The notes beneath the pieces are model-generated. The model was given only the letters and a program-made list of their open reading frames with translations. It searched no databases and had not been told where the DNA came from. The translations under genes were made by a program, and so were the position numbers. DNA of 63,341 nucleotides, the filler included, from Stramenopiles sp. TOSAG23-3 (Eukaryota), in assembly GCA_900128585.1 (NCBI GenBank). It is 11 parts of 11 records of this genome, joined end to end, with 100 filler letters (N's around TTAATTAATTAA, not from the genome) between each part and the next. Parts side by side here need not be neighbours in the genome. Positions count along the whole stretch, not along the records: positions 54,316 to 60,971 come from LT643276.1; 10 more parts are not named here. One strand, written 5' to 3'. Shown in pieces: positions 1,688-62,258 of this stretch; position 1 is the first letter of the stretch; every line of letters begins with the position of its first letter.

Positions 1688-4216
1688 TCAGCACCTCTCA
1701 AAAATCTTGTACAAGTTCTCCAAAGCGGCCACTTGCAACATCGTCCCGTCGGTGGCGAACTCTCGCCGGGGGGAAAAACGGCTCCGGCAGGTGGGCAGCA
1801 GTTGGTGCTGAACGAACCACCGCAAAGTGCCTTTCTCGTTGGCATGCGCGGCCACGTTGCCCGCGTCGTGAAAGGGCAGCAGGCTGAAGTACCACCCGAG
1901 GCATTGCGCAATGTCCTCGAAGCAAGGCTGCTCGTTCGAAAAATCGACTTTCGTCGCGAGGCGAAGAACGAAGCCGGGCAAGCCCTCTGCCGATGGAGTG
2001 TACCCTGGCAAAAGGTCTGGAAGCCCCGCCAGGCACCCGTCGTCGTTAATGTCGATGGAAAAATAATCTTTCAGCATACTCCGTCGCATCGGCTCCATCA
2101 AACAGTCGAACGCTTTCTTGAGGCGTTCGTCCGTCTCGCTCGATTCCTCCTGCGTCGAGGCGACCATGACCTGTTTCCCGAGCCCGATCCCTATGCCTAA
2201 CAAATTTTTCAACTTTGGGCGATTCGGGACCTCGAGCACGTAGAAGTTTCCAAAGTTCAGGATGGCCGTCTGGTAGAACAGCTCGTCCGCGAGTAGCGAA
2301 TGGTTGAACATGAACATCTTGGTTTGGTACTGCAACAGCGAATAGTCGTCGTCGATGACCCCGACGAAAACGTGCTTGCGCAGCACGGCGACCAGGCCAG
2401 GGTGGCAGTCTAGCTTGATGTCCTCGCGGATGTTCTGTACACTGGTCAGCTCCGCGGGGTCGTCTTCTCCCCCCGGCCGGGCGTACGGGCGCGGGTATTT
2501 GACACGCTGCCGACCGCTCGCACTCTCGCCGCCCCCCTTTCCCGCAGCGCCATTGCGCTCTGCCATCGCCAAGATCCCGGGCGCTGCGGTGATCCTGCTG
2601 TTCGAGGGGGCACGGGTCGGGTCCACCGACCCTTTCTTCACGTTCGTCATTTTGTCACGAGTAAAGAAGGGCTCCAGGCGACCCGCGGGGTTCGAGGCGT
2701 CCGTGCGGTCCAACCGACGAGGGTCGTACGGGGCCGACTTCTTCTTTGGTTTTGCACTGGAAAAGGACACGATCGTTCGGCCAGACCTGTCGACAGAGAG
2801 CTGCAGCTCTTGCTTCGCCTTCTTCTTTGCAGGCTCGGCCGCCGCGCTCTTCCGGGCAAACGCGGACAGGGAGACTTCGAACTGGGACCGACTCTCCGGT
2901 TGGTCCTGGCCGGCTACGGCCGGCTCCGTGTACCCTCCCTTCCGCTTCGATGATGGGGTGTTCGCGTCTTTCGAAGCCACAGAGGACACCATCGCAGACG
3001 AGGATGCGGGCGGCGCTAGGCCATGCATGGGGGCGTGGGTCAACGGCGTGGCGTGAAACACCCTCGACTGGTTCCCGCCGGCCAGCTTCTTGCGGAGTGC
3101 GACGCAGACGTCGCCGACGATCTCGTCAGACCGGCTAAAAATAACCTCCTTCTTCGTCGGGTGCACGTTTACGTCTACTTCCCGGGGCGGAAGCTCCAAG
3201 GATAGGTACACGAACGGTTTCCCGTGCCGGGGCAAGTACTCCGAGTAGACTGCGTTCACGGCGCGCTTCAACGGCCCGTGCTCGACCAATCGATGGTTGA
3301 TGAAGAGTATAAAATTCCCACTCTTGGTGCTCCAGTTTGCGTTCGACACGTACCCCTTTGCCGAAAACACGTATTGTTCGCTCCCTTCCCCAGCGCCCAC
3401 CTCACCTTCCACCGTCTCCTTCGCGCTCGTTGCAAACGACAGTAGCTCTCTCGCCACTTTACTCCCAAATATTGCGCGAATGTTGTCCAGCGACGATGCC
3501 CTCGCGTTCGTGTGCACGTCCGACACGGACTTGCCCTGGGCTTTGCACGAGAACCCCACCCCCGCATCGCCGTAATGCACGGCGTACTTGCTGACCACGT
3601 TCAGGATCTGCCGGTACTCCTCATTGCTGGACTTTAGGGTTCGCAATCGGGTCGGAACGTTGTAAAACAAGTCTTGCACCATGATAGTGGTCCCTTTGAC
3701 CCCCGCACAAGCCTGAGGCCCCGCCCCCCCACCGCCCTTGGCCAGCGGGCGACTGTCTTGGTACTCCACGCGGTACGCACAGTCCGAGTCTTGGGTTTTT
3801 GTAATTATGGTGACCCGCGCCACCATGCTAATGCTGGCGAGGGCTTCTCCGCGGAACCCGTAGGTCGATACCGTCTCCAAATCCTCGAACGACGAGATCT
3901 TACTGGTGGTATGCCGTTCGCAGACGATTCCAAGGTCTTCCTTCCTGATCCCCTTCCCATTGTCCGTAACCTGAAGCAGCTTGACACCGCCACTCTTGCA
4001 AGTGACACTAATGCTGGTCGCCCCCGCGTCCACACTGTTCTCTAACATTTCTTTCAGCGCAGAAGAGGGGTGATGTACAATTTCCCCCGCAGCAATCCGA
4101 TCCACGACCTCCTTTGACAAACGTCGTATCGGAGCCGCCGACTTTAGGATTGCAGAAGCCGACGGCAGCGGTGCTACCTGCGGAGTTGCCTCCTCGGTTT
4201 CAGACGAAGAGGGCAT
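1688..4216 (-). CDS. MLH1: DNA mismatch repair protein MLH1
   Basis: GHKL ATPase motifs (IAAGE, KEMLENSVDAG, DNGKGI, YGFRGEAL), DVNVHPTKKEV and C-terminal LYKIFERC; first ATG at 4216. Confidence 0.96.
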   Translation of the reverse strand: MPSSSETEEATPQVAPLPSASAILKSAAPIRRLSKEVVDRIAAGEIVHHPSSALKEMLENSVDAGATSISVTCKSGGVKLLQVTDNGKGIRKEDLGIVCERHTTSKISSFEDLETVSTYGFRGEALASISMVARVTIITKTQDSDCAYRVEYQDSRPLAKGGGGAGPQACAGVKGTTIMVQDLFYNVPTRLRTLKSSNEEYRQILNVVSKYAVHYGDAGVGFSCKAQGKSVSDVHTNARASSLDNIRAIFGSKVARELLSFATSAKETVEGEVGAGEGSEQYVFSAKGYVSNANWSTKSGNFILFINHRLVEHGPLKRAVNAVYSEYLPRHGKPFVYLSLELPPREVDVNVHPTKKEVIFSRSDEIVGDVCVALRKKLAGGNQSRVFHATPLTHAPMHGLAPPASSSAMVSSVASKDANTPSSKRKGGYTEPAVAGQDQPESRSQFEVSLSAFARKSAAAEPAKKKAKQELQLSVDRSGRTIVSFSSAKPKKKSAPYDPRRLDRTDASNPAGRLEPFFTRDKMTNVKKGSVDPTRAPSNSRITAAPGILAMAERNGAAGKGGGESASGRQRVKYPRPYARPGGEDDPAELTSVQNIREDIKLDCHPGLVAVLRKHVFVGVIDDDYSLLQYQTKMFMFNHSLLADELFYQTAILNFGNFYVLEVPNRPKLKNLLGIGIGLGKQVMVASTQEESSETDERLKKAFDCLMEPMRRSMLKDYFSIDINDDGCLAGLPDLLPGYTPSAEGLPGFVLRLATKVDFSNEQPCFEDIAQCLGWYFSLLPFHDAGNVAAHANEKGTLRWFVQHQLLPTCRSRFSPRREFATDGTMLQVAALENLYKIFERC

Positions 4217-4876
4217 AATCGCACACGGTCTAATAACGGATCTTCTGTCGTGTGATGGCTTGTCGCTGAAACTTACTAACAAATCTACAATCGACTAAAA
4301 TATAACAATCTTCTTAATTTAAATAAAGTAATGAGAACAAGGGAAACGTTCCTTGTCGGAGTGAGATACATTATATTGATTTTTAAATGAAATTAAAAAT
4401 GTGTAATAAAAGAGAGTAGAAGAAAGAATTTTTTATAATAATTCAATTTTATTTTTTCAACTAATTATTAACAGCTGATTAGCTTGACGACTTGACTAAT
4501 AATTATACAGTTCGTACCGTAGTTGTTCTCAAAACAGCTCTACTATTAGACTATAGTGTGATTATGCGCACTTTACTTAATTTTTATTTATTATTATTTT
4601 ATTTTCAAATTAAAATATTTTATAACACTGTAGAAGCAGCAGCTGTATAATAAATATTATTTGAGGAATATAATTAATAAAAAAATAATAAATACATTTC
4701 GTCTGTAAACTATGATGGGTACAGGTATTAAGTATTATTTCCAATTATAGTACACAAGAAGTACTACGAATAAAACCTAAATTATCTTAAATTCAGTAGG
4801 AATAATCAAAAACAAAATTTGTACGAAGTATTCGAGCATTTTTCATATTTTACAAATGATCGAATGAAACGGTTCT

Positions 4877-6716: not shown

Positions 6717-6816
6717 NNNNNNNNNNNNNNNNNNNNNNNNNNNNNNNNNNNNNNNNNNNNTTAATTAATTAANNNNNNNNNNNNNNNNNNNNNNNNNNNN
6801 NNNNNNNNNNNNNNNN
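6717..6816. other. Artificial contig linker N44-TTAATTAATTAA-N44 (recurs at 13523, 20329, 27126, 33908, 40689, 47458, 54216, 60972, 62157)
   Basis: Identical 100-nt spacer with stops in all six frames; flanking contigs decrease in length (6706, 6706, 6697, 6682, 6681, 6669, 6658, 6656). Confidence 0.98.
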
Positions 6817-13148: not shown

Positions 13149-13622
13149 TCTCAACAGCAATTCACAAAGCAATCAATAAAACCTTTCAACAAGTATTCGG
13201 TTCTTTTGTATAAATAAATACGAAACTACCTTTTGAATATCAAACAGACAAACGATTATTCGTTAATACAATATTGCAGTGAAAATGAAAAGTTTCCTTC
13301 TTGCTTGTTCTTTATTTTCACATTTTATCATAATATTATTGAGTTTTGTTTTTTTTGTTGTTGTGTTTTGAAATTGGAGAAATTTGTATAATTAATACGT
13401 ATTATTATATGAATAACAGGTATTAAAATACATAGTACTATTATTATACGAGGAGGAGGAGGGGAGGTTGCCGCGTAAAAATAAAAAATAAAAAAAATAA
13501 TAAAATCCCAGTGTTATTATTANNNNNNNNNNNNNNNNNNNNNNNNNNNNNNNNNNNNNNNNNNNNTTAATTAATTAANNNNNNNNNNNNNNNNNNNNNN
13601 NNNNNNNNNNNNNNNNNNNNNN

Positions 13623-13907
13623 CCCAGAACGGAACAGCGACTGCCGACCGACAATGCGCTGCTTGTGTATCCAGCTACAACAACAAGACAAACCAGCACA
13701 GCTGTAACGCGTGGACGGACTGTTCAGCTGGTGAAAAGGTAACCCAGAACGTAACAGCGACTGCCGACCGACAATGCGCTGCTTGTGTATCCAGCTACAA
13801 CAACAAGACAAACCAGCACAGCTGTAACGCATGGACGAACTGTTCGGCTGGTGAAACGGTTACCCAGAACGGAACAGCGACTGCCGACCGACAATGCGCT
13901 GCTTGTG
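13623..13907 (+). repeat. 120-nt near-perfect coding tandem repeat (about 2.4 copies)
   Basis: CCCAGAAC..ACAGCGACTGCCGACCGACAATGCGCTGCTTGTG recurs at 13623, 13743 and 13863. Confidence 0.9.
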
Positions 13908-14590
13908 GAACTGGAACCTTTACCTCAGGAAGTAACCACGCTGCATCCTGCTCGAAGTGGCGCAACTGTACCGAGGGGAGCTACGTATCCACAAATGCGA
14001 CGACCGTGAACGACAGAGCATGCAGCCCGTGCGGAGCATCCCAATTCTCTTCCCACGCAAACTCTTACGCCTGCAGGGCAATGACAATCTGCGCACCGGG
14101 GTCGTTTATCTCGCAGGCGGGAACGACGGACGGCGATCGTCTCTGCAGCCCTTGCAATACCGGCACATTCGCGAATGCATCGAACCAAAGCCATTGCTGG
14201 AACTGGACGTCATGCGCGAATGGCATTCTTGCCAACGGCAGTGCAATTTCGGACAGAGTTTGCGACGTAGCACCAGGAACGACGACTAGCGCGCCAACAA
14301 CCACTGCAAGCCCAACGACGACAACCGCCGCCAGCAGCAGCGCCATATCCAACACGAGTGCGCCAACAACCACGGCAAGCCCATCGACGACAACCGCCGC
14401 CAGTAGCAGCACCGTATCCATCACGAGTGCGCCAACAACCACGGCAAGCACATCGACGACGACCGCCGCCAGCAGCAGCGCCATATCCACCGTGGAGGAC
14501 GAGTTGGACGCCGCCGGAAGAACCATCCCGGCGGGTGGGTTTTCGTTGTTGAAATTGCTGACCTTGCTTGTGGCAGTGTTTTGTGTTTAA
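13623..14590 (+). CDS. 5'-truncated surface protein: TNFR-like Cys-rich repeats, Thr/Ser stalk, hydrophobic C-terminus (GPI signal or TM)
   Basis: Frame is open from the contig edge: repeats of QNGTATADRQCAAC...C..WT.C, then SAPTTTAS repeats and the tail LLKLLTLLVAVFCV. Confidence 0.75.
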
Positions 14591-20328: not shown

Positions 20329-20428
20329 NNNNNNNNNNNNNNNNNNNNNNNNNNNNNNNNNNNNNNNNNNNNTTAATTAATTAANNNNNNNNNNNNNNNN
20401 NNNNNNNNNNNNNNNNNNNNNNNNNNNN

Positions 20429-21914
20429 CACCTGCTCCAGATATGCCATTTTGGTTTACTTTCACAAGTGCCCACCCGCCCCCGTGTTTACTGTTCAGGC
20501 AGTAGACGTTGGTGACGCCACTTTCGGGCAAATTGATATTATAGTTACCGTCTTGTAAATTGGTGCGGGTTGTGTCATGGCAGGATTTAAATATCATGCC
20601 CTCTTTGCCACAAGTGAAGAAAGTAGGGGCTTCGCCTCGGGGTGAAGCACTGTGTGGGTACATAGCGTCTTTGCCCGACAAGCCTGAACACGAACTATAT
20701 GTCTTTGCACACTTCCCCTTCACACACATCTCCTCCTGCTCGCAGCTGTTTTCACATTTTCCACAATGTTTATCGCTTGTTTGAAAATCTCTACACAATC
20801 CGCGACAAACTGCCGTGCCAACAATTGAGCATTCTGGTTCGAGGAGCGAAGTGCCGTCAGGGATTTCCGGGGTTTGGACTGCCCCCGACCCGGTGGCACC
20901 GGTTGCCCCCGTCGGTCCACGTGGGCCTGCTTCCCCTGGCTCTCCGTCTTTCCCCGGGTCGCCCTTTTCTCCATCGTTTCCGATAGCACCTTTTTCTCCA
21001 TCTCCGCCTTGTCTTCCAGGCTTGCCTACTCGTCCTGGGGTTCCTGGCGCACCTGGTCTTCCAACTTTACCAACCTCCCCCTTTTCGCCTCGGGGCGCAC
21101 GGAATTCCACCCAATTTTTAGTGTCCTTATCAGGGGACTTGGATGCCGTAAAATCATTTTCAGCGATAAACATTGAATCTCCTCCAAAAGTTTTGTAGAA
21201 AACGTAATCTCCTTTTTTATATTTGTAGGAAATTTTAAATGGCCGTAAGTTCAGACCAACGCCATCAGCGCCTGCCTGCCCCCTTTCTCCTTTGTCCCCG
21301 TCCTTGCCGTCTATACCTCTCGCTCCATCTCTTCCATCCTTGCCCGGAATCCCATCGCGGCCTTGCCCATCTCGGCCTGGCTTTCCATTTTTTCCGTCAC
21401 GACCGTGCCCGTCTCTTCCTGGCTTTCCGTCGTGGCCGTCCCTGCCAGCTGCACCAGTCGGCCCGGGCGGTCCTCGTTCATGGACAACGGTGTCCATTCT
21501 TTTTTTCAGTTTGTCCAAATCCCGTTGCTGTTTACCTAAATCGGTTTGGTGCTCTTCCAAGGAGCCCCCTTGTGCGGTGTTTTCTTTAACCAGAGCAGTC
21601 ACTTTCTCCGTGGCTTCATCTAACTCGGCAGCTTGTTTCTTGAGGGTAGCGTCGCGTACACTGTCCATTTTCTTAATTTTTTCCAGTGTTTCTTTTGCAG
21701 CGGTCAACTCATCACTCTGTTCCTTCAAAGCAGCTTCTTGGGCGGCGCCTTTTTCCTTCAAATCCGACACCTGTGTGGCTGTCTTTTGTTTCGCCTGGAG
21801 CGACGACTGAAGCCCTGCTGGGTTTCCCGATCCAGAGACTGCACGCGAGTGCAGTTGTTCGTTGCCCGAAACAAGAGTTGCAAAGAGCAACAAAGCAACG
21901 ATCAAATATTTCAT
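20429..21914 (-). CDS. Secreted collagen-like protein: coiled coil, Gly-X-Y repeats, Cys-rich module, fibrinogen C-like domain (3'-truncated)
   Basis: Signal peptide MKYLIVALLLFATLVSG, two G-X-Y tracts, C....SDKHCGKCENSC, DGNYNI...VYC....GGGWAL. Confidence 0.8.
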
Positions 21915-22650
21915 GGCTGAACTTAATTGTGCTCCTTCGTAAAGCCCGTAGTTTGTTCCCTTGTGTTTGGAACTTTTAAAAAAACGCGGCAGGGAGCAAT
22001 TGTTCAAGGGGTTCAAGTCTGTCGATTTAACTATGGGTCCCCATTACCGACTTACAAAGAAAGAATAAATACCTTGGTATAAAGACTTAAATACTAGTCG
22101 TCTAATTATAAGTATAATAATAACAATTTACTTTTCTTCGTTGTTCCTGCTGTTTCTTGCGATAATTATAAAGGCCATCGTGCAGCAAAATGAAGAAGCA
22201 GTCAGCTGTGACTTATTACATTAGTCGTCTATTAAAGCTAATTACCAGGTACCGGTACGTACCTGGTACGGTAGCTTATACGAGGTAGACAATAGCTGCA
22301 ACCCCCCCCCCCCCCCCCCCCCCCCCCNNNNNNNNNNNNNNNNNNNNNNNNNAGAGGACAATATAGACCATTCCATTTTCATTCACTTCTTCTTTTTCAC
22401 CCCACTCGATTTTTCAATGCCTTGTTTTTTTATCCATTTAGTTTTTTAATATTAGACTAGACTACGAGGATATATATAAAAAATAAATAAATTATATAGT
22501 ACTAGTATGTTTTAAGACTCTCATTTGAAATCAATTACTATTTCAAATCCAACCCTAGTCCTATCTTGATGTTTTAATTTGATTACATTATAAATATCAA
22601 ATCATTTGTATAAAAAACAAATTATATAGTATCATTTGTATTAGGGATGA

Positions 22651-27081: not shown

Positions 27082-27225
27082 CCATCCTTTCGAAAGAAAA
27101 GTTTCGAAAGAAAAGTACATTGATTNNNNNNNNNNNNNNNNNNNNNNNNNNNNNNNNNNNNNNNNNNNNTTAATTAATTAANNNNNNNNNNNNNNNNNNN
27201 NNNNNNNNNNNNNNNNNNNNNNNNN

Positions 27226-33907: not shown

Positions 33908-34946
33908 NNNNNNNNNNNNNNNNNNNNNNNNNNNNNNNNNNNNNNNNNNNNTTAATTAATTAANNNNNNNNNNNNNNNNNNNNNNNNNNNNNNNNNNNNN
34001 NNNNNNNATTTTAGATATTTAGATAGGTGAACAATTTAAACTCAATACAATATTAATATAAACTAGACTATACATTTATTAGTTTAGTTTATCATAGTCT
34101 AGCTATATTTATATTCAATATAGGTAGGGGTGAGGGGTGAGGGGTGAGGGGAGGTCGAGTAAAGGTATTGTCCAATATATAGTGGATATAGCCTCTCTCT
34201 TTCTTTCTTTTCTTGTCGATAAAATCTACACAGCTTAAATATAACTCTATCCAAGTGATTCCATTTTTTAAGTTATTATTATTGCTTTAAAATATAGGTA
34301 TTATTATTATATTACCTTACACAGCATCTTCTAAATATTCTAACTCCAAACAACCATCGCTCAATTTTTTTTTTTAATTATTTTTTTATTTTATTTCATC
34401 ATTTTGGAATAGTATTATAATAATAGGTACACAGCAAATAGATTAACTCCAATTTTTTTATTTCTTCTTCATATTTTATTATTATTATTCATCAACTCGA
34501 GCGTTTTGTTTTATTTATTGTTTAATGTTGTGTACCTGTATTAATCTGAATACCATACCCTTTTTTCTTTCTTTCTTCTTTTTTTTTTTTTTTGGATATT
34601 ATTATTATTTACCAACTTGGTACAGGTACACAGCATTGTTGTCATCTATTGTAGATTTTTTAATTTTAACTATTTAGCTATTACACTAAAGTCGTCTCTT
34701 TTTGTTGTCCTATTACGTTATATTTTTGAAGAAGTGTGGATGGATGGCATTGAACTGCAAGTGAGTATGATTTTGATCCCAGGGATGTTTCTTACAATAT
34801 AGAAAGATATGGAAGAGAAATTGTATTTGTTCTGCTCTGATCCTCATGAGCACAATCATTTAACGGAAACGTAACAAAACGCATTAAAACGAACGATTCG
34901 ATTTATTTCAACCTTTTACTATATACATTACTTTTGAACCATAATC

Positions 34947-40688: not shown

Positions 40689-40867
40689 NNNNNNNNNNNN
40701 NNNNNNNNNNNNNNNNNNNNNNNNNNNNNNNNTTAATTAATTAANNNNNNNNNNNNNNNNNNNNNNNNNNNNNNNNNNNNNNNNNNNNATCTCATAGATA
40801 AGACAATCTTTCGGTGCCTTACAACGCCCACCTACTTCACGCTGATTTCCGTTTTTCATCCAGCAGA

Positions 40868-46225: not shown

Positions 46226-47457
46226 ATGATTGCAAAGTGGTTTGTGCTTGCTGTGGCGACCGTGGCGTTAGCCTCCCTTTCGTGTAGCACTGCCGCCGGT
46301 GGCACGACTTGCGCCGGCATGGAAATGCTTGTAGGGCAGTCTTCGGCAAACTTTCACGAGGAAGTTCAACTTTGCGCACCGTATATTGTATCCAAGTGTT
46401 GTGGGGAAGAGGGTGGATGTTCACCTGGAGATGGTTTTGACGAGTGTTACCGTGAGTGCGGTACCTCTCTCTTGGCTGCCGGCGACGAAGTACTCTTGAA
46501 GTGCTCGAAGGCAAAACGCTCCCTGTTCCTCAGAAGACGCCTCCGAAGAAGAAAAAGACGAAGGTCTAAAAGAAAAGTCTCTAAAAGAGGACGGGGTAAG
46601 ACCCGAAGAAAGAGCCGCGGGAAAACACGCCGGAGCCGAAGAAGGACGCGGCCAAGAAAGAAGAAGGTGTCTACACAAAGACGAAGGTCTAAAAGAAAAG
46701 TCTCTAAAAGAGGACGGGGTAAGACCCGAAGAAAGAGCCGCGGGAAAACACGCCAAAGCCGAAGAAAGACGCGGCCAAGAAAGAAGAAGGTGTCTAAACG
46801 AAGACGAAGTAAGACCCGAAAAACTGGACGCCGGAAAAATCGAAGAAAGAGGAGGTCTGACCGCGGGCCGGTTGCCAAAAAAAAACGCAGAAGAAAACGG
46901 CGCGGTACCGATAAAAAAGGACGAGATGGTCGCAGACGGCGAAGAAAAGGAGGCAATCGTGACAACGACGACGACAACGATCGTAGACGTAAAAAACGCC
47001 GCGGTAAGGACGACGACAACGATCGCAGACGAAAAAAACGCCGCGGTAACGACGACGACGACGACGACAACGATCGTCGACGAAAAAAACGCCGAGGACA
47101 CGACGACGACGACGACGAGTACGAGAACGAAGGCTCTGGCGACGAAGGCTCTGGCGACGAAGGCTATGGCGACGAAGGCTATGGCGACGAAGGCCATGGC
47201 GACGAAGGCCATGGCGACGAAGGCACCCCTTTCGATTCTGACGTAAGCGTCAACCGAGGAGATACTCACCCTGGAACCGGGTCGTCTATTCTCGCATTGG
47301 CGAGAAGAAAAGTTGAAGAACTAAATGAGTTTGAAGATTTTGTTTGCAAAACCATTGGAACGATGCCAAAGAGCGAATTCTGCTGGATGAAAAACGGAAA
47401 TCAGCGTGAAGTAGGTGGGCGTTGTAAGGCACCGAAAGATTGTCTTATCTATGAGAT
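46226..47457 (+). CDS. Secreted protein with Cys-rich N-domain, Arg/Lys-rich region and acidic GDEG repeats (3'-truncated)
   Basis: Signal peptide; internal ~123-nt duplication (about 46556-46800); 15-nt GGCGACGAAGGC(TCT/TAT/CAT) repeats. Confidence 0.7.
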
Positions 47458-47924
47458 NNNNNNNNNNNNNNNNNNNNNNNNNNNNNNNNNNNNNNNNNNN
47501 NTTAATTAATTAANNNNNNNNNNNNNNNNNNNNNNNNNNNNNNNNNNNNNNNNNNNNAGAAGAAGAAGAAGAAGAAGAAGAAGAAAAAAAAGAAGAAGAA
47601 GAAGAAAGAAGAAAGAAGAAGAGAAGAAGGAAAAAAAAAAGCCAACAACGACGCAGCAAGAAAAGAGAATCTTCTTCACTACTACTACTACTGACAATGT
47701 GCACTTTTCCAGAAGGCATTGTGTTAGATACATCATACGGGATTTATCAATCAACTGTGTCTTTTTTTCTCGCTTTTAACGGTTGGTTTGTGTATAGTCA
47801 ATCTTCATCAAGTATCCGCCCGAGCAGAAAGGGCAACGAAAGCGGCTGTGTGTTCTTAGAAGTATTGAACGAACGCGATCGTCCAAGAAAAAGAACACAC
47901 GGGCAAAAAAAATCAAAACAAGAT

Positions 47925-53932: not shown

Positions 53933-54315
53933 CCGCGTATAAAAACTAGTCATGAAAACAAAATTTCAAGAGGTAGTCATACAAGTTTTTAACAATCAGA
54001 TAAAAGTGCAAATTTATTCTCGTTAAAGATATCTCTTTAACTCCTTTGATGAAAAACAAATTATATCAAAAGTACATTAATTTTAATTACTTCATTAACA
54101 GCCAATTTTCTTGTTTTTTGTTGTTAGTAGTTATGATAACATATGTTACGAAGAAGTTCTTCTGGTAATATATACTACCGGTACCGCAACAACAGTCAAG
54201 CGCAGGCAAAAAGGTNNNNNNNNNNNNNNNNNNNNNNNNNNNNNNNNNNNNNNNNNNNNTTAATTAATTAANNNNNNNNNNNNNNNNNNNNNNNNNNNNN
54301 NNNNNNNNNNNNNNN

Positions 54316-54394
54316 GAGTCTTTAAGAGTAAGTACGTTTCTTTAGCGTAAGATTATATCTGACAAGCTACCTTATTCTATTCTAGTTTTCTACA
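54316..54394 (+). repeat. 3' end of 5' LTR
   Basis: Ends ...CTACA (inverse of TGTAG), followed by T-TGG. Confidence 0.75.
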
Positions 54395-54395
54395 T

Positions 54396-54408
54396 TGGGG
54401 TCCACACC
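54396..54408 (+). promoter_or_regulatory. Putative primer-binding site TGGGGTCCACACC
   Basis: TGG one base after the LTR end; cognate tRNA not identified. Confidence 0.5.
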
Positions 54409-54447
54409 AAAACAACAACAACAACAACAACAACAACGACGACGACG

Positions 54448-55827
54448 ATGAGCTCAACCAGTCAACCAACCGCGACACCGGTAAACCCACCACGTCAACT
54501 GCTTACACCTAACGGTCCAGGAAACACACAGGGCCAGACAAATGTGCCTAAGGTGGATAACTTCGACAAGAACATCCAAACCAGGCAACGGAATTTGCAC
54601 ACAGTACTGACCGAGTACAATGATAATCTGGATTCATACCAGTTTGTCACAGAGCTGATCACACACTGTCGGAACAGTGGCCTCGATCAACACAAGGGCC
54701 TAATAATATCGGCGATTATGAAAAAATGTCCAATTGGGACGCGTATGGGAAAACATGTGCGCGCTAGTCTCAAAGACACTGAACATGACCTAAAATCATC
54801 GCAGACGAATACGGGAGTGGCACCAGCCACGACGCTGTCATGGAATGATAACCAAGTGGCGGCAGTATACCTGAAGAATCTGTATGCCAGCCTACGAGAG
54901 GTGGCAGAAGAAGACAAAGAAACGCTGGCTGATTTAAAACAGAGATGGCGGGCATTGAAGATGATCGAAGCCGAGTCTATCTATGAATACTTTCGGCGAG
55001 CAGAGGAACTCAATATGCTTCTGCGAGAGAAAGCAGTCCGCTATGAGCCACAGGATGTGGCTGGGGATATACTGGAAGGCCTACGGCAGCGGTGCGATGC
55101 GGCCGACCCCATGTTCTACACAACACTGGCACTGACAGACTACGCAGCGCCGACGAATCTCTTAGCAAACGCAAAAAAGATACACAGGAGCATGCCAAAG
55201 GCATTTGCAGAAAAGATTCCACTGCGGGCATCCGATCGCATTGCCGCAGAGGAGAAAGTCAGATTCTCCAACGCTGAGAGGGAGGGCTCAGTGCAACAAG
55301 GGGCTGGCCCCCCAGAGGACGTCACATCAGATTCGGTGCGGGCAGCGACATCGCCTCCACCAGGAGCAGGAGAGGACATCACGTTCCGGGCAGAGGATTT
55401 TTTGAAACCATGCCACCAATGCGTCAAAAATGGTAGACCTGCGGACCGACACTCATGGGCATTCTGCCGAGACAATCCCCGAAACATTCACTCCCTGTCC
55501 GGTGGGGGACCGAAGAGGGACAGGTCTGGTAACGACGAGACGTCGAAGGGATGGAAGCGGCAGAATACGGGAAACCGCGATAAGAAAGACGTTAAATGCT
55601 ACAATTGTAATGGTATGGGGCACTTTGCTCGTGACTGCCCGGAAAAGAAGAAAACTCCAGCCCGAGCTGCGCTGTTACAGGAACTACGAGAGGAGTTGCG
55701 AGCGACAGAAGCCCGAAAGACGGAGGAGAGAAAGACACGACAGGCGGAGATGGCGGAGGTGTTTCGGGTGTGCATGCAACAGAGTGCAAACGCACCAACT
55801 CCGTCGTCGCCAGCACGAGGCTGGTGA
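54448..55827 (+). CDS. gag: Gag
   Basis: Capsid-like ESIYEYFRRAEEL; zinc knuckle CYNCNGMGHFARDC and a second CHQC..H..C. Confidence 0.88.
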   Translation: MSSTSQPTATPVNPPRQLLTPNGPGNTQGQTNVPKVDNFDKNIQTRQRNLHTVLTEYNDNLDSYQFVTELITHCRNSGLDQHKGLIISAIMKKCPIGTRMGKHVRASLKDTEHDLKSSQTNTGVAPATTLSWNDNQVAAVYLKNLYASLREVAEEDKETLADLKQRWRALKMIEAESIYEYFRRAEELNMLLREKAVRYEPQDVAGDILEGLRQRCDAADPMFYTTLALTDYAAPTNLLANAKKIHRSMPKAFAEKIPLRASDRIAAEEKVRFSNAEREGSVQQGAGPPEDVTSDSVRAATSPPPGAGEDITFRAEDFLKPCHQCVKNGRPADRHSWAFCRDNPRNIHSLSGGGPKRDRSGNDETSKGWKRQNTGNRDKKDVKCYNCNGMGHFARDCPEKKKTPARAALLQELREELRATEARKTEERKTRQAEMAEVFRVCMQQSANAPTPSSPARGW

Positions 55828-58800
55828 CATAAGGTCATTGACATTCGGAGGCTGAGGGAGCTCGTTTGTCGTGAACCGTACTTGGAGCAGGGCAACGTAC
55901 TCGTCCTTGCGGATACAGGAGCAACATCAACATGCGTTTCAATGTTGGCAATTGAACAAGGAAAGATACGCGTGCTTCGCTACATCAAGGTGAAAGTGAA
56001 TGTAAGAATGGCGGATTCCAGTTATGTAAGGGTAAAAAAAGCAGCAGTGTTTGTTCTACGAGATAGCAATAACCGAGAGGTGACAGTCACAGGACTGTGC
56101 CTACCGGAGATGCCCGGCTGTGACGTACTGCTGGGAATGGACGTAATGGGAGACGCCAGACGAGCGACGTTTGACTTTTATGGGATGAAACTGCTACTCG
56201 ACACTGAGGGTGGCACCATTAGCTTCAAGTTAAAGTCTAAAAGAAAAACATGCAAGGAAATTAGACTCGCCAAGGATCTCATGCTGAGAAAAGGAATCAA
56301 TCATGTGTCACAGGAAGAGCTGGGGGTATTTCTGAGTAACTGCATAGTAGAAGAAATGGGCAGGACACCAGCCAAGATACACAGGCAATACTTTGATATT
56401 CAGAGTAATGAGGACGTGATTATTGAGTGCAGGAGAGCACAGGTAATCCCACGGGGCACAACGATTGGCCACGTGGAACAGATCACGCAGCAGGAGAGGG
56501 CACTTCGCTTTTCACCAGGAGACATGGTCAACGAGGCAGCGGCCGCGCTTCGTGAAGACGAACCACATGAGGAAGAACCAAGCGAGGCCGAGGGGCCACA
56601 GGAGCCACATGACGAAGAGCCGCATGCGGATGGGGAAGATTTTGATTACCCGACAGGCCCGCTTAAGCCAACCACGGAAGCACGACAGGCCAGTCCGACA
56701 TGGGAAAATTTACTAGGACGAGACCCTAGCAATGATCCGGGATACGAAGAAGGGGGTCCGGAGAGATATGCGGAACTCTGGGAAGAATTGGCAATAGAAT
56801 TAAAACAGGTGTTTAAGAAGAAATTCACGACAGCGCAACAGAGAAAGGCTAGGGAAATTATAGAACGGTACAGTCACGTCTGGAAGACGACGGTCACGCC
56901 AGTACCCAGGGAGGTTGCAGAACACAAGATAGACACGGGCGACAATCCGCCGGTCTTTACAAGACAGTATCCGCTCAATCCGTGGCAGAAAGAAGGGGTC
57001 AGAAAGATGGTGAAGGATTTACTTGTGCAAGGACTAATACAAGAGTCCACATCAGAGTACTGTAGCCCACTATTAGTAGTCCCGAAGCCGGATGGCACGC
57101 CACGGGTATGCTTCGATGCAAGGAAGCTTAACGCGATCACAAAAAAAGATCGATACCCTGTCCCTAATGTTCAGGAGTGCTTAGGCAGGATGAATGGCTG
57201 CGGAATTTTCTCATCGGGGGACGCACTCTCAGGGTTTTGGCAGATTCTGCTCCGAATCGAAGATAGGATGAAAACGGCTTTTCAAACTGATCAGGGTTTA
57301 TTCGAGTGGGTAGTACTTCCATTTGGATTATGCAACGCGCCGCCCACATTTTGCAGAGCAATGGATCATATACTGGGGGACTTGAGAACACTATTCGTGA
57401 TATTATATGTAGATGACTGGCTCATTGCCACAAAAATGGGCGAAGATATGATTGACCTCCATCTCAAACAACTGGAGGCCCTGTTAGCAAAACTTTCAAT
57501 AGCTGGGATGTCCCTGAAAGCGACTAAGACACATTTATTTGCAACGAAGGTTAAGTTCTTGGGACATATAGTTTCAGAAAAAGGCAGAGAACCAGATCCT
57601 AGCACAGTCAAGGTCATAAGAGAGGCAAAACCACCGACCACGAAAGCAGCAATAAAAAGTTGGGTGGGATCGGTCGGGTACTATCGACATTTTGTACCAC
57701 GCTTAGCAGAAAAACTAAAACCGATCAATGCCTTGACACGAGACAAGGTACAATTTGGCCCAAAGTCAGCACAACATCTGTGGACAGGAACACACCAAGC
57801 GCTGTTCGAAGAAATAAAACAAGCGCTGACGTCGAAACCTATTCTGGCACACCCAGATTTTTCAAAGCCGTTTGAGATACATACGGATGGCAGTGTCAGT
57901 GGGCTAGGGGCGACGCTAGTACAGTATGACAATGCAAATAGAGAGAGGGTAATTGAATACGCATCCAGGGGCTTAACGGACGTCGAATCCCGTTACGAAA
58001 CAAGAGAACTCGAGTGCCTAGCTCTCTTGTTTGCAATACGCAAGTTCCATAGATATTTGGGACAACATTTTGTAGCTGTGGTGGATCACAAAAACCTACT
58101 TAATTTACAATCGTATGTCAAACATAACAGAAGATTACAAAGGTGGGCAATCGAGTTGAGTCAATACGACATACAAATGAAACACAAAAAAGGGTCAGAA
58201 CACGTGATTGCAGATTTATGTTCAAGACTCCCGGAGTTTAACGGAAAGAGGACGCAGGCTACGCCTGCGCCCACCCTCATCAGGAGGGCGGAACAAACAA
58301 GGCCACTGACGGAAATGGAGCAAATTGAAGAGAGTATAGCACTATGCGAGTTAGATGGTCCAGCGATACCAGAATGGGAAGTACCATATATGTCGATTAG
58401 ATTAGTATCAACAACAACAGCAGAGGAAGAAGGAGACGAAAATGCAGAGACACAGGCGCAGCAGACGAAGACCACGATAAAATTTTCCAATCCAGTTGTA
58501 ACAATTGACGAAATTAGAAAAGCACAACAAGAAGACATAGCGTGGAACAGAATAAGAATGGATATAAGGGATAAAACGAATTTGTGCAAGCATGCATATC
58601 TATACAAGCTGGACGAGCGTGACCTATTGGTCTTTAACGGAACATTCGTATATAAAGTGGCACGCGAACGGGAAAATCAAGAGTATCGTATTATAGTACC
58701 CAAGAGCGTTCGGAAAAGACTGATATGGAACTTCCATCATCCAATCGAAACAGGACATACAGGATACATGAACGTATACGAAGCGATTAGTTCGAGGTTT

Positions 58801-60477
58801 TGCTGGCCGGGGATGTTCAGTGATATCAAACGGGAAATCGAGAGCTGCTCACAATGCAGAAAAGCGAAACTAACGAGGAGTTCACGACTGGACAGAATCA
58901 AAACAATATTAACACAATTGCCATTCGAGATTCTATTCGTCGACCACGTAGAAATCCCAGCAAAGAATGTAGGGAATTACACACACGTACTGACAATGAT
59001 GGACGGATTTTCCAGATTCCTAGTGGCAGAAGCAGTGAGGGGCACTACAGCGAAAATAACATGCCAGGTAGTGTGGGATAGAATAGTATGTGGTCTAGGT
59101 AGGATACCGGCGGTGATAGTATGTGACAATGGCTTTGATAGCGACGAATGGAAGGCATTCTGCAGAGACATGGGGGCAAAACCTAGAGTAACGGCACCAT
59201 ACAATCCAAGGGCAAATAGGGTCGAGAGAACACACCGATTCCTCAAAGCGCTAATGCGCATTGCAGCCGAAAATATGGGACAAGCAATTTGGCCACAGTT
59301 AGTACAGACGGCAGTAAGGGCATACAACAGCCAGCGAGGCAAGAAGGGACTATCACCATTCGAAATCCTGTTTGGATTCCAACCAGATTTCCCTATCGAA
59401 AACATATTATTCAGGGTAAAAAGATGGGGGAAATTGTGGGATGAAAACAAATACTTTAGCGAGCTAGTACACCAGTTAAGAAATAACCACAGAAAAGCAA
59501 AGATATTAGACAGGAAAATAGCAGACGAGCGAATATACCAAGAAATCAGAAATCCGAAACGGTTCAGCCCAGCACTACAAAAAGGAGATTTAGTGCTGTG
59601 GCGGCAATCGCGATCAGGCTCGCGGAAACAAGGAACAGCAACAAAACTATTTTATCAGTGTACGGGACCACATAAAATTCTAGAAAAGAAAGAAGAGCAC
59701 GACCTGTACGCAATAGAATTGGGAAACTCAGGAATACGAAAGGCTTGGATTCCGGGAGAACACCTGGCAAGAGTGCCAGCACGACTAGAAAACTCAGCAA
59801 CCAAACCCCGGAACACAAACTGGATGATTGACGAAGACAATCGAGTAATAGGAGAACACAATGTGGGAGATATAGTGGCCTTGAAATTCAAGAAACGAAA
59901 AGAACGAGAGGCAAACATGAACGTCACAGTTGGAGAGATTATACAGATTAACAACGACACGGAAAAAGCACCAGTATTAATACATTTATACGGGCCATAC
60001 CCACGGAAAAACTTAGCAGTAGCTGCACACAAGGCATCGTGGAGTCCATTAATTAGAACGGACGAGGGAGAACAATTGGCAAAAGACATTGCGTCATCAC
60101 GACGGTCGTGGAGGGGCCGACGGGTAACCATAGGAGTGCAGTTCGACGACCTCATGCCAATTCCACCTCTGGAACTGCGACAAGGAAAAATTTCAGAAGA
60201 AGGAAAGAACCAGATTAAAAAGTACATTCGAGAGGCTAAAGACAGCAGACACAGAGGCAGACAAGTAGACACAGTGAGAGCCGTGAGAACTAGCGTCTGC
60301 GGAACGGAACAGATCAATAAACAGCAGATGGAGACATGGGGCCAATATCTAGCGAGAGAAATAAGAGAAGGTTTCATCAGACATGCAGTCGTATACGACA
60401 ATGAACAGTATCTTCAACAATCATACGAGTATGTAGGACAGGGGTTCGTCATACCAACGTCAGAGAATAAAAATTAA
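55828..60477 (+). CDS. pol: Pol polyprotein (PR, RT, RNase H, integrase, C-terminal extension), in frame with gag
   Basis: LADTGA, LPFGL, YVDD, HTDGS...ELE...DH...ADLCSR, HHCC, D-D-E, GPH. Confidence 0.95.
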   Translation, partial: HKVIDIRRLRELVCREPYLEQGNVLVLADTGATSTCVSMLAIEQGKIRVLRYIKVKVNVRMADSSYVRVKKAAVFVLRDSNNREVTVTGLCLPEMPGCDVLLGMDVMGDARRATFDFYGMKLLLDTEGGTISFKLKSKRKTCKEIRLAKDLMLRKGINHVSQEELGVFLSNCIVEEMGRTPAKIHRQYFDIQSNEDVIIECRRAQVIPRGTTIGHVEQITQQERALRFSPGDMVNEAAAALREDEPHEEEPSEAEGPQEPHDEEPHADGEDFDYPTGPLKPTTEARQASPTWENLLGRDPSNDPGYEEGGPERYAELWEELAIELKQVFKKKFTTAQQRKAREIIERYSHVWKTTVTPVPREVAEHKIDTGDNPPVFTRQYPLNPWQKEGVRKMVKDLLVQGLIQESTSEYCSPLLVVPKPDGTPRVCFDARKLNAITKKDRYPVPNVQECLGRMNGCGIFSSGDALSGFWQILLRIEDRMKTAFQTDQGLFEWVVLPFGLCNAPPTFCRAMDHILGDLRTLFVILYVDDWLIATKMGEDMIDLHLKQLEALLAKLSIAGMSLKATKTHLFATKVKFLGHIVSEKGREPDPSTVKVIREAKPPTTKAAIKSWVGSVGYYRHFVPRLAEKLKPINALTRDKVQFGPKSAQHLWTGTHQALFEEIKQALTSKPILAHPDFSKPFEIHTDGSVSGLGATLVQYDNANRERVIEYASRGLTDVESRYETRELECLALLFAIRKFHRYLGQHFVAVVDHKNLLNLQSYVKHNRRLQRWAIELSQYDIQMKHKKGSEHVIADLCSRLPEFNGKRTQATPAPTLIRRAEQTRPLTEMEQIEESIALCELDGPAIPEWEVPYMSIRLVSTTTAEEEGDENAETQAQQTKTTIKFSNPVVTIDEIRKAQQEDIAWNRIRMDIRDKTNLCKHAYLYKLDERDLLVFNGTFVYKVARERENQEYRIIVPKSVRKRLIWNFHHPIETGHTGYMNVYEAISSRFCWPGMFSDIKREIESCSQCRKAKLTRSSRLDRIKTILTQLPFEILFVDHVEIPAKNVGNYTHVLTMMDGFSRFLVAEAVRGTTAKITCQVVWDRIVCGLGRIPAVIVCDNGFDSDEWKAFCRDMGAKPRVTAPYNPRANRVERTHRFLKALMRIAAENMGQAIWPQLVQTAVRAYNSQRGKKGLSPFEILFGFQPDFPIENILFRVKRWGKLWDENKYFSELVHQLRNNHRKAKILDRKIADERIYQEIRNPKRFSPALQKGDLVLWRQSRSGSRKQGTATKLFYQCTGPHKILEKKEEHDLYAIELGNSGIRKAWIPGEHLARVPARLENSATKPRNTNWMIDEDNRVIGEHNVGDIVALKFKKRKEREANMNVTVGEIIQINNDTEKAPVLIHLYGPYPRKNLAVAAHKASWSPLIRTDEGEQLAKDIASSRRSWRGRRVTIGVQFDDLMPIPPLELRQGKISEEGKNQIKKYIREAKDSRHRGRQVDTVRAVRTSVCGTEQINKQQMETWGQYLAREIREGFIRHAVVYDNEQYLQQSYEYVGQGFVIPTSENKN

Positions 60478-60869
60478 GTAGCATAGTAGCAGTGAGAATG
60501 AAGTATCAAGCAAGTAGCAAGTATCAGTATCAGAAAGAGTAGCATATCACAAAAGGCAAAAACAAATAAGGTGAGAAGGAAGCTAGAGGAGGTTCAACAG
60601 GAGTGTTTTAGTGAGTAGTTGTGACAAGCGCAGAGTCTCACACTACTAATCGCAAGATTAGTGTTCGTAAATGAATTTCACTCCTGAGTTGAACAAAACT
60701 AGCGAAAGTTGAATTAGGCATACATTGCCTTTTAGAGTTACAGTAAGGGTAAAGAAGAGAAAAATTTAAGTTTCAAAGAAAAATTTAAGTTTCAAGCGAT
60801 GGGGTTAGTGATAGGGCAATGTGGCCGTTGGCTAAAGATAGGGTTAATGATAGGGCAATGGCTGTTGGC

Positions 60870-60892
60870 AAAAGAAGAAAGGTGAGATGGAA
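60870..60892 (+). promoter_or_regulatory. Polypurine tract
   Basis: AAAAGAAGAAAGGTGAGATGGAA immediately before TGTAG. Confidence 0.75.
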
Positions 60893-60971
60893 TGTAGTAT
60901 AGCAAAAATACTTTAAGGAAATATCAGCGGAAGGAAGATGATACAGTTAGAATTGAATGGCTGTGATTGAT
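60893..60971 (+). repeat. 5' end of 3' LTR
   Basis: Starts TGTAG after the PPT. Confidence 0.75.
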
Positions 60972-61073
60972 NNNNNNNNNNNNNNNNNNNNNNNNNNNNN
61001 NNNNNNNNNNNNNNNTTAATTAATTAANNNNNNNNNNNNNNNNNNNNNNNNNNNNNNNNNNNNNNNNNNNNTT

Positions 61074-62156: not shown

Positions 62157-62258
62157 NNNNNNNNNNNNNNNNNNNNNNNNNNNNNNNNNNNNNNNNNNNN
62201 TTAATTAATTAANNNNNNNNNNNNNNNNNNNNNNNNNNNNNNNNNNNNNNNNNNNNTA

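Follow-up and report, generated by a model that had tools for sequence, protein, structure and literature searches.

How are the Pol proteins of a retrotransposon made when a stop codon stands between gag and pol and no start codon follows it? [quoted passage not shown] TOSAG23-3 (GenBank assembly GCA_900128585.1), which lies in a 63,341-nucleotide (nt) stretch of joined contigs that we analysed as a whole (the window). The element is alone on its own 6656-nt contig (LT643276.1, window 54316–60971), and its features given below are all on the plus strand. An earlier note on this DNA had taken the single in-frame UGA between gag and pol as a programmed readthrough site and the hairpin around it as the recoding signal. 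The comparative evidence, namely the retention of TGA in relatives and the constraint on pol, supports the first of these interpretations, and programmed UGA readthrough giving Gag-Pol is probably the way in which pol is expressed. The hairpin is probably not the stimulator.

The two stop-to-stop open reading frames (ORFs) that meet at the junction, 54346..55827 and 55828..60477, share one frame. The gag ORF (54448..55827) has 459 codons followed by TGA, and the pol ORF (55828..60477) has 1549 codons and ends in TAA at 60475–60477. The junction reads GGC TGG TGA CAT AAG. Its TGA (55825..55827), the proposed readthrough site in the context TGG TGA CAT, is the sole internal stop among 2010 gag-pol codons, is followed by C at +4, and marks a boundary shared with relatives. 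The protease active-site motif DTGA (55912..55923) lies 29 codons past the stop, and none of the 28 codons in between encodes Met, leaving pol without an AUG ahead of the motif. The earlier note had described a single frame open to 60477, the absence of an AUG before the protease and the +4 C, and it was correct on all of these points.

Relatives were sought in protein and metagenome collections. A full HMMER search of 1.84 billion representative proteins with pol residues 1–1200 gave only two close relatives among the matches listed, P0001 (64% identical) and P0003 (42%), the rest being 29–39% identical. The alignment of pol, P0001 and P0003, used as a query, led to 22 metagenome loci. The junction was examined in the 11 loci where the match extends to the protease or falls within a long ORF (L001–L010 and L012); L011 and L013–L022 were left out, their matches beginning in the reverse transcriptase at 28–35% identity or lying on short contigs. 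The genome_contigs collection gave no match, and the viral_contigs collection yielded none with pol alone and a single locus with the alignment (L023, 25% identical).

In six of the 11 loci, the gag ORF ends in TGA and pol continues directly in the same frame, with no second internal stop. These loci represent three further lineages, whose pol is 37–64% identical to that of the element: L001 (TGG GGT TGA CAA GCC; pol 60–64%; gag 33%, E = 2e-94), L002 and L003 (TGA AAT GTT; pol 37–38%), and L004, L005 and L012 (ATG TGA AAC or AAT; pol 39–40%). All four DNA lineages use TGA at the junction, and the pol ORFs terminate in TAA, TAG or TGA. A usable Met ahead of the D[TS]GA motif is present in none of the six loci; L001 has one Met, 6 residues before the protease Asp. 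The distance from the stop to D[TS]GA is 27–31 codons in three lineages and 77 in L001. On the gag side, the comparison included P0151, a 467-residue gag protein of a further lineage that is 40% identical to the element, and the identities among the element, L001 and P0151 are 33–42%. The stop follows a conserved gag helix motif after 21 residues in the element, 22 in L001 and 20 in P0151, the last residue of P0151 aligns without gaps one codon short of the element's gag end, and the gag ORF ends within 1–2 residues of the same position in the three lineages. Because TGA stands at the boundary in three further lineages and the P0151 gag ends alike, the UGA is a retained feature rather than a private nonsense mutation. 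The N-termini of the two database pol proteins are a separate matter: P0001 begins at an internal GTG, 16 codons past the TGA, and P0003 starts with Val 33 residues before DTGA, which is uninterpretable.

The substitutions among copies show that pol downstream of the stop is under purifying selection. Between the element and metagenome contigs, there are 22 synonymous and 7 non-synonymous changes in pol and 4 and 5, respectively, in gag; these counts cover the 38 in-ORF substitutions listed, and 36 more lie outside the list. The L002–L003 pair shows 64 nucleotide differences, with 36 synonymous and 13 non-synonymous changes in pol, and the L004–L005 pair shows 272, with 107 and 55, respectively, in pol. 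In both pairs, codons flanking the stop have changed and the TGA has been kept. Contig pieces at least 99% like the element make up 12 of 19 from run X3 and 10 of 15 from run X5, and the runs that hold it come from nine studies, including the source study. With near-identical pieces in these runs and mostly synonymous changes in pol, the element looks young, as the earlier note had supposed, and active. No second copy was detected in the window by blastn or tblastn.

Around the stop itself, contigs from runs X3, X4 and X5 were aligned with a likeness threshold of 80%, and position 55825 is spanned by no piece among those listed (42 more lie outside the list). Coverage in X4 ends at 55586 and restarts at 55873, and the only X5 piece there is a joint from 55672 to 60020. 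Internally deleted derivatives of this family occur in other samples, including that X5 joint, which omits 4347 nt, and the protein P0152 (55761/57186). P0152 was considered as a stop-less relative and rejected, because it is an internal deletion that joins gag up to 55761 with 57186 in another frame and takes out both the stop and the protease. A protein search with gag-pol residues 300–800, with X at the stop, gave no match, an acidic low-complexity stretch having probably crowded the candidates.

From these observations, the following course of translation can be proposed. Most ribosomes would stop at the UGA at 55825 and release Gag, while a small fraction would decode it with a near-cognate tRNA and go on in frame to give a Gag-Pol polyprotein. 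The readthrough fraction would then set the Gag:Pol ratio, and the leaky UGA-C context may contribute. Entry of ribosomes into pol from gag is indicated by the frame, which is constant despite a 48-codon length change in L001, together with the lack of an initiation codon and the fact that TGA is the only stop used at the junction. Since the stop is retained in relatives and the element appears young and active, readthrough is the best explanation, and we infer that the stop is bypassed in this manner during translation.

Other explanations of the junction must be weighed against this one. The stop could be a private nonsense mutation in a dead copy that once had a single gag-pol ORF, and the open or fused frames of a derived clade (L006 and L007–L010) would fit such an origin, as would the lack of an independent contig over 55825 among the listed metagenome pieces. 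However, relatives at 37–64% pol identity carry TGA at the same boundary, the gag ORF ends within two residues in three lineages, the other 2009 codons are intact, and 12 of the 19 X3 pieces and 10 of the 15 X5 pieces are at least 99% alike. A search with gag among longer, fused proteins also found none, although this is weak evidence. The relatives largely refute the mutation, and we regard it as most improbable. A reading in which UGA is a sense codon of the host and gag-pol is one ORF has a precedent in that UGA is reassigned in some protists. In the window, TGA terminates 11 of the 21 ORFs of at least 300 residues. Six of the 11 host ORFs checked end in UGA (seven of 11 in the whole table, one without a family match), among them Mlh1 and dynamitin, in which the Pfam match extends as far as the end of the ORF. 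These terminations exclude codon reassignment, and a sense UGA is also at odds with the fact that every lineage has exactly one UGA in some 2000 codons, placed at the gag-pol boundary; we give it almost no credence. None of the 11 checked ORFs has an internal in-frame TGA, which is true by construction because they were delimited from stop to stop and therefore tests nothing. No other long TGA-interrupted ORF pair within a real gene was found in the window.

A different alternative accepts that the stop is selected and has pol made by other means: a separate transcript driven by an internal promoter and translated from a non-AUG start, reinitiation after termination, or splicing that takes the stop out. 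Our finding no conserved stimulatory structure, and the UGA-A of two lineages, would both agree with it. However, pol lies in the gag frame in four of four lineages, even though the distance from the stop to the protease differs by about 48 codons between L001 and the element, and such a constraint is expected only if ribosomes come from gag. There is no AUG, and in three lineages 27–31 codons separate the stop from D[TS]GA, which places it where the protease fold begins and leaves no room for a separate start. Expression of pol by these means is therefore unlikely. Ribosome hopping, a pseudoknot between the hairpin loop and downstream sequence, selenocysteine insertion and UGA reassignment were also considered and set aside.

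The 9-bp hairpin that the earlier note placed on the stop was confirmed by sequence and fold. It consists of GTCGCCAGC-ACGAG-GCTGGTGAC (55806..55828), with one G-U pair and a 5-nt loop, holds the UGA and the +4 C in its 3′ arm, and appears in both the minimum-free-energy (MFE) and the centroid folds. No other hairpin in the 6656-nt contig is as good. In 100 dinucleotide shuffles, the mean number was 0.56 per contig (maximum 4); therefore, one such hairpin is unremarkable and only its placement on the stop is notable. The pairing probability of the stop is 0.999, and 0.9% of 1981 codons are at least as paired. The region from −30 to +33 had a z score of −2.08 (7 of 200 shuffles as good), and the 161-nt region folded one of −1.49, which is not significant. 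As a recoding signal, the hairpin fared poorly. In L001, the closest relative, a weak 6-bp stem has the stop in its loop, and the pairing probability of that stop is 0.31 (73% of codons as paired); the values are 0.98 in L002 (8% at least as paired) and 0.85 in L004 (21%), and no structure common to the lineages was found at the junction among the three related DNA lineages. Judging from ribosome geometry, a stem with the stop in its 3′ arm should already be melted once the stop is in the A site, and a stop-embedding hairpin therefore could not act like the known 3′ stimulators. Of the features whose conservation the earlier note had proposed to check, UGA is kept in all four DNA lineages, with UGA-C in L001 and UGA-A in two others, and the hairpin is not shared.

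The hairpin could still be a signal of another kind: its paired A might be edited, it might serve as the take-off point for ribosome hopping, or its ACGAG loop might form a pseudoknot with CUCGU. Its exact placement on the stop as the only 9-bp stem of the contig, the rank of the stop in the top 0.9% of codons, the z score from −30 to +33 and the two copies of the loop complement CTCGT within 80 nt downstream (55861 and 55900) would be consistent with such a role. The lack of conservation and the expected melting of the stem speak against all three. In addition, hopping would find no in-frame UGG landing codon, the pairing of all five loop bases would leave a pseudoknot no connecting loop, and ADAR-type A-to-I enzymes are not known outside animals, which we counted against editing, an idea without support. 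We therefore consider a signalling role of the hairpin very doubtful. In L002 and L003, a stem of about 18 bp begins 1–2 nt past the TGA-A stop (L002 2925–3010, L003 4792–4877, with one mismatch in L003), with z scores of −2.86 and −2.09. This predicted stem is a better candidate for a readthrough stimulator than any structure in the element of the window. A broader but quite improbable possibility is that lineage-specific RNA structures of unconventional geometry tune the gag-UGA-pol stop throughout this marine clade. If so, the very stable hairpin of the element would sequester the stop, and the stem of about 18 bp would adjoin it in L002 and L003. A stop-embedding hairpin would then work in a manner undescribed for readthrough; it might select the genomic RNAs whose translation goes beyond gag, or it might stall ribosomes in a stack in which a trailing one changes termination. 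Repeated switches between fused and UGA-split forms in one clade would, in that case, let the setting of the Gag:Pol ratio be studied as a natural experiment.

Several observations weigh against readthrough of the element's UGA. There is no significant 3′ structure in the element, the region from +3 to +103 having a z score of −1.36 (20 of 200 shuffles as good) and that from +3 to +63 one of −0.91 (31 of 200). The MFE fold of +3..+103 does contain an imperfect stem-loop that starts 5 nt past the stop (55833..55877), which is not statistically supported. It also contains the second stem of the earlier note, GCAGGG..CCTTGC, which is present as described at 55887–55910, but the region as a whole is not unusually stable. 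The only Rfam hit to 55700–56000 was mir-598 (E = 0.33), far under the gathering score. As for sequence context, ordinary host genes such as dynamitin and ThiF end in UGA-C, which shows that UGA-C alone is not exceptional in this host. UGA-C is found in the element and L001, and UGA-A, which is not the classic leaky context, in two related lineages; context alone is thus not the shared signal. In five of the 11 loci (L006 and L007–L010), the frame is open or fused across the junction, the L007 contig holding just 54 codons upstream of it. In a quick maximum-likelihood IQ-TREE tree of 20 rows, with P0001 in place of L001 (the L001 pol being divided by the ends of its contig), these elements all group in a single, fully supported clade, within which the fused forms make up a derived sister group of L002–L005. 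The tree is compatible both with an ancestral stop and with one gained twice, and because the lineages are related, the four TGA occurrences are not four independent events. Finally, the Ty1/copia element Tca2 of Candida albicans has gag-UGA-pol in one frame, yet its junction alone gave no readthrough in S. cerevisiae and was found to contain an internal promoter (PMC2194720). An in-frame stop is therefore no guarantee of simple readthrough. Tca2 belongs to another superfamily than the element and serves as a warning of a possibly non-canonical mechanism; its authors nevertheless concluded that the gag-pol RNA is the template from which pol is translated (PMC2194720), which speaks against a separate pol message.

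The arrangement at the junction can be compared with those of known elements. The earlier note had named Dictyostelium Skipper and the gammaretroviruses as precedents; this understated the case, since gag-TGA-pol Gypsy elements are documented and the stop is required in one of them, Tj1. In Skipper, a protease ORF of its own follows the stop, and pol lies in a different frame. Tj1 of Schizosaccharomyces japonicus, also Ty3/Gypsy, carries TGA between gag and pol and lacks an AUG for pol, and removal of the TGA abolishes transposition (PMC4600332). In Tosmo1-3 and Tcry1, as in Tj1, the TGA is followed by C in the context GAA TGA CT, and for Tosmo1-3 and Tcry1 readthrough has been proposed; the same paper also cites Skipper (Leng et al. 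1998) among the retrotransposons with an in-frame stop strategy (bioRxiv 10.1101/2022.12.06.519325). These elements resemble ours in being Ty3/Gypsy with gag and pol in one frame and a single TGA between. However, they belong to the Tf1/sushi lineage, while our element is in another clade, which is known so far from contigs of marine metagenomes only. Their context is strictly GAA TGA CT, compared with TGG TGA CA in the element and TGA AA in related lineages. The function of the Tj1 stop was shown by transposition, and our element is known from sequence alone.

Murine leukaemia virus (MuLV) reads through a single in-frame gag-UAG-pol stop, with a 3′ pseudoknot and a low Pol:Gag ratio (PMC5009743). 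The element differs in having UGA, no significant 3′ structure and no Rfam match. In MuLV, the spacer between the stop and the pseudoknot is about 8 nt. UGA readthrough with an extended 3′ stem-loop, of the alphavirus and coltivirus type, was reportedly described by Firth and colleagues in 2011. L002 and L003 are similar to this type in the position of their stem, whereas the element of the window has no comparable stem. The Salpingoeca rosetta transposon survey describes LTR elements with a frameshift or in the same frame only, with no readthrough (PMC6875170). None of the terms sought was present in the Capsaspora transposon survey.

As a whole, the element is best explained as a full-length Ty3/Gypsy LTR retrotransposon that has recently been active in a marine unicellular eukaryote. 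The parts follow in the order of a 262-nt LTR, a primer-binding site (PBS), gag with a CCHC knuckle, protease–reverse transcriptase–RNase H–integrase, and a polypurine tract. The contig begins with the 79 nt that close the 5′ LTR and run to ...CTACA (54316..54394), and ends with the first 79 nt of the 3′ LTR, beginning with TGTAG... (60893..60971); TGTAG...CTACA are terminal inverted repeats. Logan contigs of run X1, the source run, are an assembly independent of the window contig. Record 1 of that run (262 nt) links 60893–60971, 104 more letters and 54316–54394, and other X1 contigs branch off exactly at 60892/60893 and 54394/54395, the branch points in the assembly graph. Both contig ends are thus the two ends of one collapsed 262-nt LTR whose middle 104 nt lie outside the contig. 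The reach into the LTR on each side is 79 nt in the window contig and 30 nt in the other assembly, as two k-mer sizes at the same repeat boundaries would give. The depths in X1 are 157.7 for the internal part, 23 for the flanks and 590 for the LTR; depth is not copy number and was not used as evidence. The L001 contig (1–5467) is circularly permuted (integrase end, LTR region, gag, TGA, pol) through the same LTR-collapse artefact.

One base past the LTR end is a putative PBS, TGGGGTCCACACC (54396..54408), which begins with TGG; no tRNA gene was found in the window. The whole 5′ leader up to the gag ATG (54409–54447) is a (CAA)n/(CGA)n microsatellite, at which read mapping is broken. In the nucleocapsid part of gag, the CCHC zinc knuckle (55597..55638) matches Pfam zf-CCHC with an E-value of 3.7e-08. 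The protease is marked by its motif, as the Pfam gag-asp_proteas match is weak (E = 6.5e-4, under the curated cutoff). The reverse transcriptase (57079..57573, pol residues 418–582) matches RVT_1 (E = 4.3e-29), and RNase H (57781..58167, residues 652–780) matches RT_RNaseH_2 and RT_RNaseH (E about 1e-30). The integrase (58696..59208, residues 957–1127) comprises the H2C2 zinc domain and the catalytic core (Integrase_H2C2, E = 2.4e-14; rve, E = 5.8e-14). This Pfam domain order is that of Ty3/Gypsy elements (Metaviridae), and no chromodomain, the mark of the chromovirus branch, was found by Pfam at E ≤ 0.01 in the 1549-residue pol. Beyond the integrase core, about 420 pol residues (59209–60474) have no Pfam match, and the invariant columns common to pol, P0001 and P0003 extend to about residue 1329. 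A 23-nt purine-rich stretch adjoining the 3′ LTR, AAAAGAAGAAAGGTGAGATGGAA (60870..60892), is the presumed polypurine tract, as placed by the LTR boundary.

The window consists of 11 separate contigs, nine of 6656–6716 nt and then two of 1085 nt, which are joined by N44-TTAATTAATTAA-N44 linkers at 6717–6816, 13523–13622, 20329–20428, 27126–27225, 33908–34007, 40689–40788, 47458–47557, 54216–54315, 60972–61071 and 62157–62256. The genes beside the element in the window are therefore not its genomic neighbours. Many host genes are long unbroken ORFs, such as that of Mlh1 (867 residues, 1688–4294). Two host ORFs, 13571–14590 on the plus strand and 20373–22043 on the minus strand, contain TNFR cysteine-rich repeats and collagen triple-helix repeats, a set of domains that may point to a relative of animals. 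Another contig has perfect 79-nt terminal inverted repeats (40789–40867 and 47379–47457). Because the contig of the element also extends 79 nt into its LTR, these repeats probably reflect a k-mer overlap that the assembler carried into a repeat, rather than the ends of a transposon.

The element does not reveal a new recoding mechanism, its gag-UGA-pol arrangement being that of known elements. A narrow literature search found no published description of its clade. The gag-UGA-pol strategy was previously known from gammaretroviruses, from Dictyostelium and from a small number of Ty3/Gypsy and copia elements of fungi, and it is now extended to an undescribed Ty3/Gypsy clade from marine unicellular eukaryotes. 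The work also bears on annotation, because gene callers split or truncate such pol ORFs, as P0001 with its internal GTG start illustrates. A clade that includes both UGA-split and fused gag-pol forms provides comparative material on switches in the control of the Gag:Pol ratio.

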